Shown here: one piece after another, positions 1-47,438 of the stretch
How the letters are laid out: every line of letters begins with the position of its first letter
Numbering within the stretch: the first letter of the stretch is position 1
Assembly: GCA_963713865.1 (NCBI GenBank)
Contig: OY970208.1
Location: forward strand, 1,856,001 to 1,920,000
Reading direction: 5' to 3'
DNA length: 64,000 bases
From: an uncultured candidate division Zixibacteria bacterium
Lineage (GTDB): Bacteria > Zixibacteria > MSB-5A5 > RBG-16-43-9
Notes under the pieces: generated by a model
The model's database searches: none
What the model was told of the DNA's origin: nothing
The model's input: only the letters and a program-made list of their open reading frames with translations
Translations under genes and position numbers: made by a program

Positions 1-440
1 GCATCATCACCAGCGTTTCCCGGGCCATTATATCTTCTCACCCAAGCTGTATCCCCATTAGGATAATATTTTATGGTGGTGTAATCCTCACCTGTGCCAC
101 TGCCATAACTTAACCCAGTCACATACACATTCCCAGAACCATCTACTGCTATGGCCCGAGCCCAATCAGCAGTGTCTGCCGTACCATTGTATATTCTCAC
201 CCAGGCATTATCCCCATTTGGGTAGTACTTTATGGTGGCATAGTCCCAGGAAGTCATGGTGTCCATACTATATCCGGTCACATAGACATTGCCAGAGCCA
301 TCTACTGCTATGGCCCGAGCATTATCATTGGAGTTGCCCGGTCCGTTATATCTTCTCACCCAGGCAGTATCAACAGATTCGGCAAAAAGAGGCAGGGTAA
401 AAATAGAAATCAATACCAGCACCAAAGAAGTCTTGACCAT
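1..440 (-). CDS. Secreted SBBP beta-propeller repeat protein (5' part; runs off window start)
   Basis: Not in ORF track (truncated). ATG at 440 with GGAGG RBS; reads [57 protein letters not shown]... with repeated WVRxYNG / [14 protein letters not shown] / DYxTIKY units. Confidence 0.85.
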   Translation of the reverse strand, partial: [146 protein letters not shown]

Positions 441-42354: not shown

Positions 42355-42360
42355 TTCAAT

Positions 42361-42435
42361 CGGGGCGTAGCGCAGCCTGGGTAGCGCACTTGCTTGGGGT
42401 GCAAGTGGTCGTCCGTTCAAATCGGATCGCCCCGA
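42361..42435 (+). tRNA. tRNA-Pro(GGG)
   Basis: cggggcg...cgccccg acceptor; anticodon arm cttgc-ttGGGgt-gcaag; T arm gtccgttcaaatcggat. Confidence 0.92.
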
Positions 42436-42465
42436 TAAAAGGAGATTCCGAAATAGGAGGCAAAG

Positions 42466-42942
42466 ATGAAGAAGTATATTTTCATTGCCATCTGTGTTTC
42501 TCTGCTAGCTGTAGCTGTGAGTTGCCGAAGCGGGAGAGACATTGAAGCTGAAAAAACTAAGGTCAAAGCAGTCCTGGATAGCTACATAACAAGTATTGAG
42601 AATGAAGACATGGGACTGTATTCCAGGATCATCATGCATGACCCAGACATGGTGAATTTCGGCACTGCCGTCACCGATCGCATCGTCGGGTGGGACGCTT
42701 TGAGAAATGCAATTAAAGCTCAAAATGCCGCTTTGTCGGAGACAAAGATCACTCAGAGCGATGTTACCATTAATCTGTCACCTGACGGGCAGTTTGCGTG
42801 GGCGACATCCCTATGGAATTTCAAAGCTACAATGGGAGCGCAAGCCATTGATCTGCCAGTTCGCTGCACTTGGATTCTGGAAAAACGCAATAAGGACTGG
42901 GAAATTGTTCATTTTCATAAGTCCATAGGCGCAGCATTCTAA
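42466..42942 (+). CDS. SnoaL/NTF2-like fold lipoprotein
   Basis: Lipobox-like AVAVSC; FGT...D...GW, AW, R.TWILEKR..DW.IVHFH.S; higher GC than flanks. Confidence 0.8.
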   Translation: MKKYIFIAICVSLLAVAVSCRSGRDIEAEKTKVKAVLDSYITSIENEDMGLYSRIIMHDPDMVNFGTAVTDRIVGWDALRNAIKAQNAALSETKITQSDVTINLSPDGQFAWATSLWNFKATMGAQAIDLPVRCTWILEKRNKDWEIVHFHKSIGAAF

Positions 42943-42960: not shown

Positions 42961-43012
42961 CTTGCTTGGGGTGCAAGTGGTCGTCCGTTCAAATCGGATC
43001 GCCCCGATAAAA
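42961..43012 (+). repeat. 52-bp direct repeat of tRNA-Pro(GGG) 3' part (attR-like)
   Basis: Identical to 42389-42440 (cttgcttggggtgc...gccccgataaaa). Confidence 0.92.
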
Positions 43013-43077
43013 ATAAATAATTTTATGCAAGTATTAGTAAAAATTAGGATGTTTGCATTGCCTCTATTACTCCAATT

Positions 43078-43124
43078 TGGGGGTATATACGCAATGCAGA
43101 TATGAACGAGTTATGCGCTATGCT
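43078..43124 (+). other. attI-like site / cassette core (GTTATGC)
   Basis: gggggtatatacgca...gatatgaacgaGTTATGCGCTATGCT; inverse partner agcacagcgcgtaat at 45064-45078; similar motif at 45249-45291. Confidence 0.55.
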
Positions 43125-43191
43125 AGTCTCCAATCTATAATATTATTTTACTAATAAACAATTATTCATTAAAAAAATCAAATAGATATTT

Positions 43192-44187
43192 ATGAAAAAA
43201 CAATTAATCGATACCGTAGAATACAAAGAGAAAATCATTGATGTCCCTTTATCACAAATCGAATTGAATAATCTAAATCCAAGGAGAAGGTTTGTTGATA
43301 CAGAGGAGGATGTGTTAATAGAATCAATATTATCGAAAGGTATGTTAAATCCAATTATTGTATATAAAAGGCAAAAAGATAACCGATACGTAATTTTGGA
43401 TGGCGAAAGAAGATTCAAAGCATTTAAGAAATTAAACAAGCCACATATCTCGTGTCATGTTTTAGAAAAAGAGCCAACAGAATTAGAAAATTTATCAATG
43501 ATGTTTCATATCCATAATGTAAGAGAAGAATGGACCGACTTTGCAATTGCTCACACGTTGGTAAAAGTAATTTTTGAAATGGGAAAGGATTTGAGGCACT
43601 TAGGGCGTCAAGATAAATTACAGTTATCCCAATTAACTTCTCTTTCTGAGTACAAAATTAATAAATATTTGATTTTCTATGATTATCCAAAAAGCATAAT
43701 TACTAAGTTTATGGAATCTGAGGTGAAAGAGATTCCAGACAAAGGGATGGATCCTGATATACTGGCAGAAATGCATGCGCCTATAAAGCTTATTGAAAAT
43801 GAACTCCCAGATTTTTTGAAAGAATATAACAAAGAAAAAATAATTGATGCATGCGTAAGAAAAAAAGCAAATGGTATTATCAAAACAAATAGAGATTTTA
43901 GGATGCTGACAAAATCTCTATCCGCAATGAAAAAAGGGGGAGTCAGAAAAGAGGTTATGTTTGATAAATTAGTATCATTTATCAAGGATTTGGAAGTTAC
44001 TCCGCAAAATATTTTTGAAGAAACATCAGAGACTATTTATCAAATAGACTCAATTCTTAAAAAGACAGATACATTAATTAAAGAAGTGCAAAACTTAAAT
44101 CTGAATCAAATAACAAGACATGAAAAAGGCAGATTAGAGAGAAATTTAAAAAAACTGACTGATTTATTAAGAACTAAATTAAGATAA
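43192..44187 (+). CDS. ParB/Srx N-terminal domain protein (no parA nearby)
   Basis: NPRRRF...L.ESI...G.LNPIIV...ILDGERRFKA; HNVREEW; AT-rich. Confidence 0.85.
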   Translation: MKKQLIDTVEYKEKIIDVPLSQIELNNLNPRRRFVDTEEDVLIESILSKGMLNPIIVYKRQKDNRYVILDGERRFKAFKKLNKPHISCHVLEKEPTELENLSMMFHIHNVREEWTDFAIAHTLVKVIFEMGKDLRHLGRQDKLQLSQLTSLSEYKINKYLIFYDYPKSIITKFMESEVKEIPDKGMDPDILAEMHAPIKLIENELPDFLKEYNKEKIIDACVRKKANGIIKTNRDFRMLTKSLSAMKKGGVRKEVMFDKLVSFIKDLEVTPQNIFEETSETIYQIDSILKKTDTLIKEVQNLNLNQITRHEKGRLERNLKKLTDLLRTKLR

Positions 44188-44188
44188 C

Positions 44189-45025
44189 TTGCTAATGCTC
44201 GATGAAATTAAGGATCAGTTTAAAAAGAATGGCTACATAGAGTCACCAGGTTATAATTTACCTAAATCTTTGCTTTGGCAACCAGACTTAGTCTTCTCAA
44301 AAAATAATTACACATATCTTATTCTCGTTAAAAGTAATAATTCTATTCCCCCCTCCTTTCTTAATAGAATCTCAAATATACCTAAAGACACGATAATTCC
44401 GCTGATTGTCTTTGCTCAAAAATTAAAGGATAAAGAAGAAAAGGGTATACTATCGCTCGGTATAAGTATAGCCTATTTTATTAGGGGGAGACTTGTAAAA
44501 TTTACCTTTAAGAAAAAGAAGCCACGGAAAATCGTTAAGAGAGATATAAGAAACAAATTAAAAGCTATTGATATTTTCATAAGCTCTAAACAAGATATTG
44601 TTGAAAGAGAATTTGTAAAAAGTAGAATTAATTATTTAAGGGATACCAATAATTATCCTTTTTTCCTACATATGATTGAATACGACAAATTCGAAATGTC
44701 AAAACTATATAAGCACATCAAAACTGAAATGTGCAAATGCGAATGGATTATAGTTTTATTGGGAAATCACTATTCTCCAATTGTTAAGTATGAAATGAGA
44801 AAAGCTCTAACAGTTATAGAGCATAATAACTATTTCATGTTTGTGAAATCGACCAATAATTGTCGCATAGCATGGGAAAAGGAATTAGACGAAGTAAAAC
44901 AATATAACACTATTCACTATATTCCTTATGCAAATTTAAATGATTTAGAAGTTAATCTATCTAGAGCTGTAAATAAAAGAATGTATCAAATTTGCAAGAA
45001 AGAAAAGGTTGAGATATTTGTTTAA
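44189..45025 (+). CDS. Putative restriction-endonuclease-like N-terminal domain fused to TIR/DUF4062-like domain
   Basis: N-term F...GY...WQPDLV.......ILVK; C-term DIFISS.Q...ER...CEWIIVLLG..YS..V.YE...A; starts 1 nt after parB-like stop (ATG at 44195 also possible). Confidence 0.6.
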   Translation: MLMLDEIKDQFKKNGYIESPGYNLPKSLLWQPDLVFSKNNYTYLILVKSNNSIPPSFLNRISNIPKDTIIPLIVFAQKLKDKEEKGILSLGISIAYFIRGRLVKFTFKKKKPRKIVKRDIRNKLKAIDIFISSKQDIVEREFVKSRINYLRDTNNYPFFLHMIEYDKFEMSKLYKHIKTEMCKCEWIIVLLGNHYSPIVKYEMRKALTVIEHNNYFMFVKSTNNCRIAWEKELDEVKQYNTIHYIPYANLNDLEVNLSRAVNKRMYQICKKEKVEIFV

Positions 45026-45161
45026 ATGCAAATTTATGACTTTATCATAGCCTTTATTCAGGAAGCACAGCGCGTAATAGAGCAAACAACGGCGCTTCCT
45101 TTGTTGATGAAGGATAATTATGATTATCTGGGTGATTCTGAGTGGTCAAACTGCTCTTTTT

Positions 45162-45219
45162 AGTTAATGAAAACAATCTTAGTCCTTATTCCGGCTTTTA
45201 ATGCGGAGAAAACCATTTC
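45162..45219 (+). repeat. Diverged duplicate of the GT2 gene 5' end
   Basis: 53/58 identical to 46768-46825; encodes MKTILVLIPAFNAEKTIS. Confidence 0.85.
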
Positions 45220-45370: not shown

Positions 45371-46366
45371 ATGCTTTTAAATCATCTAAAAACAGTTATG
45401 CATAACATAAGAATACCAAAGCATATCCGGCATAATTTTAAAACCATCAATCCAGATAAAATGAACGAATTACGAGAAATACTCAGGGAAGAGTATTTTA
45501 AAAACATTAAATACTCCATTGGAGTTACTTCAGAAAATTATCTTGCGACAGCAGAAGGCAAAACTGACGTTGAAAATCATACGGTTAATAGATTAAATGT
45601 TTTCAGGAACACGGTCGTCCCCTGGTTAGATTCATTAAAAAAATTATCCTCATCCAAAATACTTGAAATAGGTTGTGGAACAGGGTGCTCTACTTTAGCA
45701 CTTGCAGAACAAGGTGCCATTGTCACAGGAATTGATATAGACGAAGCAAGCATCAGGGTGGCAAAATTTCGAGCCAATTTGTATGGCGTTGATTACACCC
45801 TCCTTCAAGAAAATGCCACACGCATTGATCGATTCAGCAAACAATCTTTTGATTTAGTAATATTTTTTGCGTCACTTGAACACATGACTATTGATGAGAG
45901 AATCGAGGCCTTGAAAAAAGCGTGGGATTTACTATCAGCCGGCAGTATCCTGGTTGTAATCGAAACGCCGAATCGACTTTGGTTCCGGGATGAGCATGCC
46001 TCTCTTCTTCCATTTTTTCATTGGCTGCCGGATCAACTCGCTTTTTATTATTCCTCTAGGAGTCAGAGGATTAATTTCTACCGCTTCTCAAATGACTTAG
46101 GCAGCCAGGTGCCGATGACATTTCATAGACTCGGAAGGGGGGTAAGCTATCATGAATTCGAAATAGCAATTGGTAAAAATGCTAAATTGAAAGTTATTGG
46201 AGACCTTGATTCGTTCTTAGCAAAGAGATCCATAAATCCACTCCTTAAGCTAAAGAGAAAAATATCCAAGGGAAATAGATATTATAAATTAATTAAAAGT
46301 CTAAATCCGTTCGTACATAGTTCGTTTTTTCGTCAGGAACTGAATTTGGCTATTATCAAAGAATAA
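45371..46366 (+). CDS. Class I SAM-dependent methyltransferase (cassette-like)
   Basis: ILEIGCGTG, GIDID, FDLV...ASLEH, ETPNR; flanked by inverted repeats 45285-45331 / 46522-46568. Confidence 0.85.
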   Translation: MLLNHLKTVMHNIRIPKHIRHNFKTINPDKMNELREILREEYFKNIKYSIGVTSENYLATAEGKTDVENHTVNRLNVFRNTVVPWLDSLKKLSSSKILEIGCGTGCSTLALAEQGAIVTGIDIDEASIRVAKFRANLYGVDYTLLQENATRIDRFSKQSFDLVIFFASLEHMTIDERIEALKKAWDLLSAGSILVVIETPNRLWFRDEHASLLPFFHWLPDQLAFYYSSRSQRINFYRFSNDLGSQVPMTFHRLGRGVSYHEFEIAIGKNAKLKVIGDLDSFLAKRSINPLLKLKRKISKGNRYYKLIKSLNPFVHSSFFRQELNLAIIKE

Positions 46367-46751: not shown

Positions 46752-46772
46752 TGTTCTGGTTGCAGCAAGTTA

Positions 46773-47438
46773 ATGAAAAAAATCTTAGTTCTAATTCCAG
46801 CTTTTAATGCCGAGAAAACCATTTCTCCGCTCATAGAGCAGATTTCAGCTAATAGTATAAAAAAAGAAGATATTTTAGTTATAGATGATGGCTCTCTGGA
46901 TTCGACTTATGAGATTGTAAAAAAATGTGACGTTAAGATTATTCAGCACCAAAAAAACAAAGGCAAGGGGGAGGCTTTGAAAACGGGGTTTGGGTATACC
47001 CTGCGGGAAGGGTATTCAGGGGTAATTACTTTAGATGCGGATTTACAGCATGATCCAAAATTCATTCCGGAATTTATCAAAAAAGCAAACTCAGATATAC
47101 TTGTCGGGACAAGGAATATCAGGCTAAAAATTATGCCTTTTCCCAGATGGTTATCTAATAATCTAACTTCTATAATTGTATCTATTTTAGGAGATACTAA
47201 AGTCAGGGACAGCCAATCCGGTTACAGGTATATCTCTGCAGAGGTTTTAAAAACTGTCAGATTGAGGACTAAGAAATATGAGCTTGAGTCAGAACTATTA
47301 ATAAAAGCCGGAAGAAGAAAATTCAAAATTGATCCGGTGCCGATAAGCACAATTTATAAAGGAAGCAAAAGTTTCATAAATCCTCTTGTGGATACAGGAA
47401 GATTTATTAAATTAATGTGGAAAAGTCTTTTCTGGTGA
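46773..47438 (+). CDS. Family 2 glycosyltransferase (DPM-synthase-like)
   Basis: LIPAFN.E, VIDDGS.D.T, N.GKG.AL, TLDADLQHDP, DSQSGYR; ATG 46773. Confidence 0.88.
   Translation: MKKILVLIPAFNAEKTISPLIEQISANSIKKEDILVIDDGSLDSTYEIVKKCDVKIIQHQKNKGKGEALKTGFGYTLREGYSGVITLDADLQHDPKFIPEFIKKANSDILVGTRNIRLKIMPFPRWLSNNLTSIIVSILGDTKVRDSQSGYRYISAEVLKTVRLRTKKYELESELLIKAGRRKFKIDPVPISTIYKGSKSFINPLVDTGRFIKLMWKSLFW

Follow-up and report, generated by a model that had tools for sequence, protein, structure and literature searches.

Domains of the DUF4062 family were shown to be defence NADases, enzymes that hydrolyse nicotinamide adenine dinucleotide (NAD+), only in 2026. According to the accessible text of three preprints (10.64898/2026.05.01.722283, 10.64898/2026.09.04.749371 and 10.64898/2026.06.25.731849), they act in several phage-defence systems by abortive infection and depend on a conserved Glu; the DUF4062/NIR systems described include Swarozyc, Vulcan, Vesta, Evangelion and NIR-Avs2. 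These NADases also depend on oligomerisation or on a partner module. The tested proteins yield plain ADP-ribose, and the DUF4062 domain of Avs, earlier annotated as a cytidine monophosphate (CMP) hydrolase, turned out to be an NADase. Orphan ParB-fold proteins are reported to be common and mostly without an assigned function (accessible text of 10.1101/2025.10.10.680097). Here we describe a two-gene locus that joins an orphan ParB and a DUF4062-like protein in a small tractable unit with clear sites for point mutants. It lies on contig OY970208.1 of an uncultured candidate division Zixibacteria bacterium (assembly GCA_963713865.1). The window analysed is 64,000 nucleotides long (contig positions 1,856,001 to 1,920,000), and coordinates refer to it unless another locus is named.

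Gene 1 of the pair encodes the ParB-family protein and gene 2 a degenerate nuclease domain followed by the DUF4062-like domain. Because DUF4062 domains were shown to be NADases in the three preprints, we take gene 2 to be the effector, under the control of gene 1. The pair would then be a mobile, ParB-controlled, NAD+-depleting abortive-infection module directed against phages (or plasmids), a reading to which we give a probability of about 0.58.

An orphan ParB gene and its partner

The earlier note had pointed to two tightly coupled AT-rich genes 1 nt apart, and both open reading frames (ORFs), their spacing and their composition were confirmed. Gene 2 has 278 residues, and the 1-nt spacing, if read from the TTG at 44189. 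The database record (P0003) begins at the ATG at 44195 and has 276 residues; residue numbers of gene 2 follow this record. The GC content is 29.9% in gene 1 and 29.2% in gene 2, against 39.1% in the window. The motifs GERR, WQPDLV...ILVK, IFISS and LLG..YS..V.YE are all present in the translations. Promoter-like sites are no commoner than chance (11 vs 11.9), and an Rfam scan returned the tRNA, one chance match and nothing else.

A survey of gene neighbourhoods, which the earlier note had named as a check, found conserved co-occurrence. In genome loci collected through gene 2 (Ignavibacteriaceae, Melioribacteraceae, two Chitinophagaceae and Bacteroidales), ParB lies directly upstream in 5/5 and the neighbours are unrelated. 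Metagenome loci were collected through ParB at 39% identity or more. Four of these 40 loci end at the gene, and gene 2 comes next after ParB in 34 of the 36 that are assessable, or 30/32 once 95%-alike sequences are merged. The median intergenic spacing in the family is 1 nt, with a range of -8 to +13 nt in 39/39 paired loci. None of the loci read has gene 2 without ParB. Within the pair, conservation is highest in ParB, and the ParBs that accompany gene 2 group on a single branch of the ParB tree (FastTree, midpoint root, 69 sequences). At L029:655-3604 a close ParB homologue is followed by an Mrr-nSTAND3 gene (PADLOC PDC-S73) instead of gene 2, and at L026:1092-3438 two broken copies of gene 2 lie on opposite strands behind a single ParB.

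Gene 1 scores above the TIGR00180 (ParB/RepB/Spo0J) cut-off and falls with ParB_N clusters in the ESM Atlas, which is a lead only. A search with its C-terminal two thirds gave 150 relatives. In an alignment of 51 relatives, N29, R31, S45, G50, R73, R74 and N109 are invariant and E72 is nearly so; the residues of the nucleotide site are kept across relatives at 52-85% identity. In Myxococcus ParB the residues that bind and hydrolyse cytidine triphosphate (CTP) are Q52, R54, S68, G73, E93, R95 and N127 (accessible text of PMC13229309). Judged by spacing and by an alignment with Noc, R31, S45, G50, E72, R74 and N109 of gene 1 would correspond to such residues. The clade carries two marks: Gln of Box I is replaced by Asn, and Glu of the Box III motif ENLQR by His108. 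A His of this type is invariant in the clade and is also present in 4/4 loci recovered with a hidden Markov model (HMM); loci L006-L084 contain MFHIHNV by construction, since this motif served as a search pattern. Pfam gave no helix-turn-helix (HTH) family in residues 104-331. The distant relative L050 matches HTH_24 (E 2.9e-4) and HTH_ParB (E 0.016).

That GERR is intact and that parA and parS are missing, both remarked in the earlier note, proved correct. No parA or parS is adjacent to gene 1 in the window, and no parA-like ORF was seen among the ORFs at 30-56 kb, which were read by eye. The parS-like sites and the other ParB matches of the genome lie more than 1 Mb from the pair. The close clade has no conserved gene upstream of ParB; at the distant locus L049 a ParA-like ORF lies two genes further upstream. 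Gene 1 had no match in 50,697 phages and three weak matches, none of them close, in 72,556 plasmids. It shares with chromosomal ParB, Spo0J and Noc a nucleotide-binding domain at its N terminus, the key residues and, probably, an HTH, but differs in being an orphan, in the Q-to-N and E-to-H changes of Boxes I and III, and in having another C-terminal half.

The two domains of gene 2

The gene 2 family comprises 43 homologues at 48-100% full-length identity, and 50 representatives extend it down to 24%. The AlphaFold2 model of gene 2 has a predicted local distance difference test score (pLDDT) of 92, and residues 1-105 folded separately reach 91. The N-terminal model matches XisH (Z 9.5, root-mean-square deviation (rmsd) 2.8, 103 residues aligned) and then VC1899, Cdn1, NucS and AF1548 (Z 7.9-8.1), and most of the top 30 structure matches have the PD-(D/E)xK fold. 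Foldseek agrees on the fold but gave no match at E<=0.001; the ESM Atlas assignment, PDDEXK_3 at 0.90, is a lead only. The nuclease-like fold proposed in the earlier note thus stands; a nuclease effector very probably does not. The acidic residue at position 44, before Lys/Arg, is present in 8/92 homologues and absent in 84/92, and the full D-E-K triad is found in 1/92, although the catalytic residue may have shifted. We rejected an active nuclease effector on this loss of the triad, and the domain very probably does not have that role.

The C-terminal domain (residues 123-269) matches MilB (Z 14.0, rmsd 3.0, 133 aligned), YtoQ (13.4), TIRAP (13.3), RCL (13.1) and TIR-STING (12.8). Profiles were compared with 14 DUF4062 and 24 TIR_2 domains from one phylum. 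DUF4062 came first by a small margin (97.6%, E 3.6e-12, vs 95.9%, E 5.4e-9 for TIR_2), and the three best single matches were all DUF4062. Gene 2 and DUF4062 have in common FxSS, ER, a Glu that ends strand B and a Glu on helix C. R138, E162 and E200 are invariant in 92/92 homologues, and S131 and E137 are kept in 91/92. The best family member matches PF13271 (DUF4062) at E 4.1e-5, and at E<=0.1 DUF4062 is matched by 22/41 members and TIR_2 by 12/41. The fold matches and the invariant E200 bear out a TIR/DUF4062-like domain with Glu in the expected place, as first proposed. Because conservation lies here and not at the nuclease site, the C-terminal domain is presumably the enzyme of gene 2 under selection. 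Its chemistry would be that of the DUF4062 proteins assayed by others, namely cleavage of NAD+.

Searches of PDB sequences with gene 2 profiles returned nothing meaningful, and gene 2 is absent from the viral contigs searched. No longer or fused form was found among 8000 candidates of 549-2000 aa, which is weak evidence.

Table 1. Features of the pair and of its insertion slot (positions in the window, or residues where stated).
Feature	Position	Strand	Basis or remark
tRNA-Pro(GGG), left edge of variable slot	42360..42436	+	same place in relatives G001, G003, G006
SnoaL gene, separate insertion	42466-42942		enclosed by 52-nt repeats 42389-42440 / 42961-43012
Exact 52-nt copy of tRNA-Pro 3' end	42961..43012	+	identical to 42389-42440
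Left flank, decayed attC-like site, core GTTATGC at 43110-43116	43030..43116	+	aligns with attC-like site of G001, same slot
Gene 1, orphan ParB-family protein, 331 aa	43192..44187	+	PF02195, TIGR00180, homologue alignment, Noc/Spo0J alignment
Gene 1, ParB N-terminal nucleotide-binding domain	residues 14-103		PF02195, E 1.4e-13
Gene 1, probable HTH	residues ~144-161		HTH families matched only in distant relative L050
Gene 1, C-terminal half			helical, clade-specific
Gene 2, degenerate PD-(D/E)xK domain and DUF4062/TIR-like domain	44189..45025	+	homologues, AlphaFold2 model
Gene 2, N-terminal domain, restriction-endonuclease fold, triad lost	44195..44509	+	D31, L44 for D/E, K46; structure matches
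Gene 2, C-terminal domain, TIR/NDT-superfamily fold nearest DUF4062	44561..45001	+	structure matches, profiles
Gene 2, predicted catalytic Glu200	codon 44792-44794	+
Right flank, inverse-core-like 15-mer and 5' part of decayed attC-like site	45064..45125	+	aligns with inverse-core end of G001 cassette
Slot right edge, copy of glycosyltransferase leader and first codons	45133..45220	+	gene resumes near 46770

The wider ParB clade and the insertion slot

Distant ParBs at 24-37% identity align with gene 1 over the full length (99.8%, 301 columns). A cluster of 29 genes downstream of them encodes PRTase-CE (6/6 tested exceed the Pfam cut-off). A cluster of 33 genes upstream encodes a D12-class (Dam-type) adenine methylase (one tested in Pfam), whose DPPY is intact in 32/32 sequences with a complete N-terminal motif. 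In five loci methylase and ParB are joined by a partner with a restriction-endonuclease (REase) fold at the N terminus and a helical C-terminal domain. The N-terminal domain of these partners matches that of gene 2 with a profile probability of 94.2%, and the helical domain carries RNxxxH in 4/5, a motif which we take to be HEPN-like. Three further loci have a partner with a gene 2-like N-terminal domain (95.5%) and an unassigned C-terminal domain. The C-terminal domains of these alternative partners were assigned to no Pfam family. The further ParB loci recovered by HMM in 285 genomes of the phylum are all methylase-ParB-REase-effector (4/4). None of the upstream genes recovered next to the close ParBs belongs to the methylase cluster, many of these loci having no abutting upstream ORF. 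Because defence systems are known to be modular, a constant ParB, a common degenerate adaptor and exchangeable toxic enzymes would together be the layout of a conflict system.

The unit of Dam-type methylase, ParB and PRTase-CE occurs at about 29 loci (L047-L087 and L091, e.g. L049:2059-4679), four of them viral contigs. At L054:4059-9739 a gene for an ORC-CDC6-like ATPase and a CARF-like gene lie directly upstream of it. The units with a REase fold and a HEPN-like domain are L046:642-3278 and L145-L148, of which four come from genomes of the phylum to which the window belongs. Partners at L050:3068-4024, L055:4016-4774 and L084:7968-8906 combine the REase fold with a C-terminal domain that has an H-x-R-Y motif and no Pfam match; it may be phospholipase-D-like. 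Viral ParB homologues at L088-L090 are followed by TET-associated glycosyltransferase genes and form the outgroup of the clade, hinting at a link with DNA-modification systems.

The pair itself sits in a slot that runs from tRNA-Pro(GGG) to a glycosyltransferase gene and holds different cargo in each relative read. The earlier note had placed it just after a duplicated tRNA-Pro 3' end. The repeat is exact (52 nt), but it belongs to the SnoaL insertion. We rejected it as the attachment site of the pair, since it encloses the SnoaL gene only and leaves the pair outside. Targeting of tRNA genes was also rejected as a family trait; among 17 related loci scanned a tRNA is present only at L005.

The bracket typical of an integron cassette, also seen in the earlier note, is present in a decayed form. 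GTTATGCGCTATGCT (43110-43124) and AGCACAGCGCGTAAT (45064-45078) are complementary at 12/15 positions, which was reached by 0/100 flank shuffles. In a stricter 12-mer test the window scores 9, and scores of at least 9 also occur in 35/462 mismatched flank pairs. The 15-mer or its complement is found, at up to three mismatches, in 38 places of the genome, including the two of the pair. This bracket alone is suggestive; support comes from the relatives. Among 22 non-redundant loci with both flanks, core and inverse core match at 10/12 or better in six and fall below 10 in 16, against 4/462 mismatched pairs that reach this level; of these six, two are AT-rich and could have arisen by chance. Clear core and inverse-core ends are seen in L002, L014, L016 and L020. 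Both ends of the window's copy align with attC-like cassette ends in the corresponding slot of G001. The left site folds as a hairpin, but without the RYYYAAC start; the right site starts GCGTAAT, and inspection by eye found no far end to match it. The left flank also aligns with dispersed copies in the window's genome near 523,690 and 709,070. No RNA run is listed among the sequencing runs that contain this sequence, and further contigs yielded nothing more about the flanks.

No integron integrase is adjacent to the pair, and the genome, which is 94% complete, has 0 matches above the TIGR02249 cut-off. A relic of the C-terminal part of an integron-type integrase lies 1.1 Mb away (G000:C1:753928-754134). 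The locus shares with integron cassettes that lack an adjacent integrase (CALIN, solo attC) the core and inverse-core ends around promoter-poor cargo. It differs in that its ends are decayed and most relatives of the pair show no such ends. Other solo attC-like ends in the same genome precede a row of protease, methylase and nuclease genes (~523,700) and an HNH-type gene (~709,050). Gene 2 was found in 0/40 related genomes, and a close ParB in no other of the 285 genomes of the phylum. On these comparisons the module appears to travel in cassette form across part of its range, and the window copy appears to be fixed and decaying.

A defence-like context, expected from the earlier note, was found in a modest form. 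In the same slot G003 has a SIR2 protein among others, and G006 a methylase with an MvaI/BcnI nuclease. Among genes near the pair, 12/83, in 9/26 loci, have a PADLOC match at E<=1e-15, vs 2/50 ordinary window genes. The glycosyltransferase gene has two copies of its start (45161-45219 and 46768-46825, 91% over 58 nt), one on each side of a gene for an S-adenosylmethionine (SAM) methyltransferase (45371-46366), a second insertion at the slot's right edge. At two independent loci (L001:8916-11612 and L023:1713-4406) the pair is followed directly by an 898-aa gene, a second insertion slot; this gene is presumably valyl-tRNA synthetase-like.

Readings of the pair and comparison with known systems

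In the reading that we prefer, the DUF4062/NIR-like domain of gene 2 would hydrolyse NAD+ through Glu200, and the infected cell would stop. Activation would require that several copies are brought together or that a restraint is released. The dead nuclease-fold domain would serve as an unvarying adaptor, by which gene 2 attaches to its ParB partner or to DNA. The control unit would be gene 1, a nucleotide-binding (most likely CTP-binding) ParB dimer on DNA that keeps gene 2 quiet and turns it on upon foreign DNA or a changed nucleotide pool. What the sequences show are the folds, the conserved residues, the obligatory pairing, the exchange of effectors in the wider clade, the mobility and the defence-like slot; the NADase chemistry, a contact between the two proteins, the way in which control runs and the trigger are inferred. 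The ancestral trigger was probably DNA without the self methylation mark, because an intact Dam-type methylase is present in the wider clade. The two-gene branch lacks this enzyme, and any single guess at its own trigger is doubtful.

Several observations weigh against this reading. Glu of Box III, which we take to be catalytic in canonical ParB, is His in gene 1, and the chemistry of the switch may differ because of this replacement. In a phage ParB-dioxygenase pair, mutations of nucleotide-binding residues were without effect and no complex was trapped (accessible text of PMC13229309). Two close ParBs lack gene 2 (L029, and L031, in which ParB is truncated). The sole Pfam match of gene 2, PF13271, scores 13.4 bits (E 0.095) against a cut-off of 24.7, and the best structure matches of the C-terminal domain are tied between nucleotide N-glycosidases and TIRs. 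None of the five cargo genes in the slot of G001 has a PADLOC match, and 17/26 loci lack a PADLOC-matching neighbour. Enrichment among the neighbours is modest (p 0.08 with every match counted and one window as control); p is 0.007 only when one subtilase match per set and one GTPase match of the control are left out.

The pair is an entry point to a larger ParB-centred family, in which the same type of ParB occurs with at least four types of effector; this bears on whether the ParB nucleotide switch can serve as an immune sensor. We tentatively suggest, at somewhat less than even odds, that the pair is one branch of an undescribed, widespread ParB-clamp immune family. A Dam-type methylase would mark self, and CTP-bound ParB would read unmarked DNA or a changed nucleotide pool. 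ParB would then switch on, through the dead restriction-enzyme domain, an exchangeable suicide enzyme (DUF4062 NADase, HEPN-like RNase or PRTase-CE). If this is true, a switch of chromosome segregation is a general immune sensor, and the methylase-free branch uses another self signal.

The pair could instead be a toxin-antitoxin (addiction) system, in which gene 2 would be a constitutive NADase toxin and the ParB-like protein its antitoxin and repressor; it would spread by killing cells that lose it, and no phage would be needed. The locus has the right build, two tightly coupled genes with the DNA-binding type first, and gene 2 was never found without ParB in the loci read. The cassette-like ends of the relatives (6/22 loci vs 4/462 mismatched pairs) also fit; toxin-antitoxin cassettes are common in integrons. 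A plain antitoxin, however, could do without a complete nucleotide-binding site, which is kept here at 52-85% identity, and the intact methylase of the wider clade points to discrimination of self from non-self. We consider addiction unlikely as the full account, and it is compatible with defence, the two not being mutually exclusive.

We regard a reversal of the roles as quite improbable. Gene 2 would then be the sensor, its dead nuclease domain sitting on DNA, and would make a signal with the TIR-like domain; the ParB-fold protein would do the killing as an NTPase or nuclease, a role proposed for DndB-like ParB proteins. ParB-fold proteins have been suggested as nucleotide-degrading or nuclease effectors (accessible text of PMC10853773), and ParB, the most conserved part, has an invariant His for Glu of Box III. 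Yet ParB is constant and the C-terminal enzyme of its partner varies, as for a fixed controller with swappable effectors, and the tested DUF4062 proteins make plain ADP-ribose, as far as the accessible text of the preprints goes.

Very long odds attach to a C-terminal domain that is a nucleotide N-glycosidase of the MilB/RCL/NDT type and not an NADase, destroying normal or modified (deoxy)nucleoside monophosphates so that the system starves or cleans the nucleotide pool. MilB is the top structure match (Z 14.0), and a conserved Enterococcus protein, YtoQ and RCL follow at Z 13.1-13.5, the TIRs being within about 1 Z. The first Foldseek match is the CMP N-glycosidase BcmB, and the PRTase-CE partners of the wider clade may also act on nucleotides. 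The profiles, by contrast, favour DUF4062/TIR_2, with no NDT family in the best 25 of 30 (there was no direct NDT profile comparison), and the Avs domain once annotated as a CMP hydrolase is, by the preprints' accessible text, an NADase. That the pair serves a mobile element in partition or housekeeping, without a role in conflict, is hardly credible: gene 1 passes the TIGR00180 cut-off, but parA and parS are not nearby, no close match exists in the 72,556 plasmids or 50,697 phages, and the partners of ParB are of toxic-enzyme types.

The pair matches no named system, in agreement with the earlier note. PADLOC (a version from 2023) and NCBIfam gave no match to gene 2 at E<=1. Neither the pair nor the methylase-ParB-PRTase-CE unit was found described in the literature, subscription papers, figures and bioRxiv supplements being outside view. 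'ParB' occurs 0 times in the main texts of the three DUF4062 preprints (10.64898/2026.05.01.722283, 2026.09.04.749371 and 2026.06.25.731849), whose figures or supplements might show the pair.

With the DUF4062/NIR systems, as their accessible text describes them, gene 2 shares the TIR-like domain, the FxSS...ER...E signature and the conserved catalytic Glu; the pair likewise is mobile and near defence genes. Their activation needs a partner module, as would that of gene 2 if it is coupled to ParB. Those systems are single genes or, in Vesta, stand with a phosphatase, and their domain is N-terminal where stated. In the pair, the domain stands on the C-terminal side of a dead REase fold, scores under the Pfam cut-off and is linked with ParB. 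PD-Lambda-5 (PADLOC models A and B) shares with the wider clade a ParB-like protein and a Dam-type methylase. The pair, in contrast, lacks a methylase and encodes its effector separately; of the 449 positions of PD-Lambda-5_A, gene 1 matches 48-119 alone (E 1.6e-6), and 3/4 distant-clade ParBs tested have no match to this model at E<=0.001, nor do the other sequences scanned. Menshen (NsnA-B-C; accessible text of PMC12065111) resembles the pair in its ParB-fold sensor and in its polymorphic effectors with an inactive nuclease-fold N terminus. It differs in that NsnA is a ParB-DUF262 protein, the system has three genes and the adaptor is an inactive PIN domain. Gene 1 matches NsnA only at E 0.044, and gene 2 has no PADLOC match at E<=1. 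In effector-ParAB (accessible text of 10.64898/2026.10.19.760177), immunity has likewise taken up a ParB, next to REase, HEPN and further effectors. That system keeps ParA, to which the effector is fused, and its ParB is inactive, whereas the pair has no ParA and an intact GERR site. The pair is a real, conserved and probably undescribed candidate defence module. As judged from its sequences, it would act like the NIR/DUF4062 systems and be organised like Menshen or PD-Lambda-5, while belonging to none of them.

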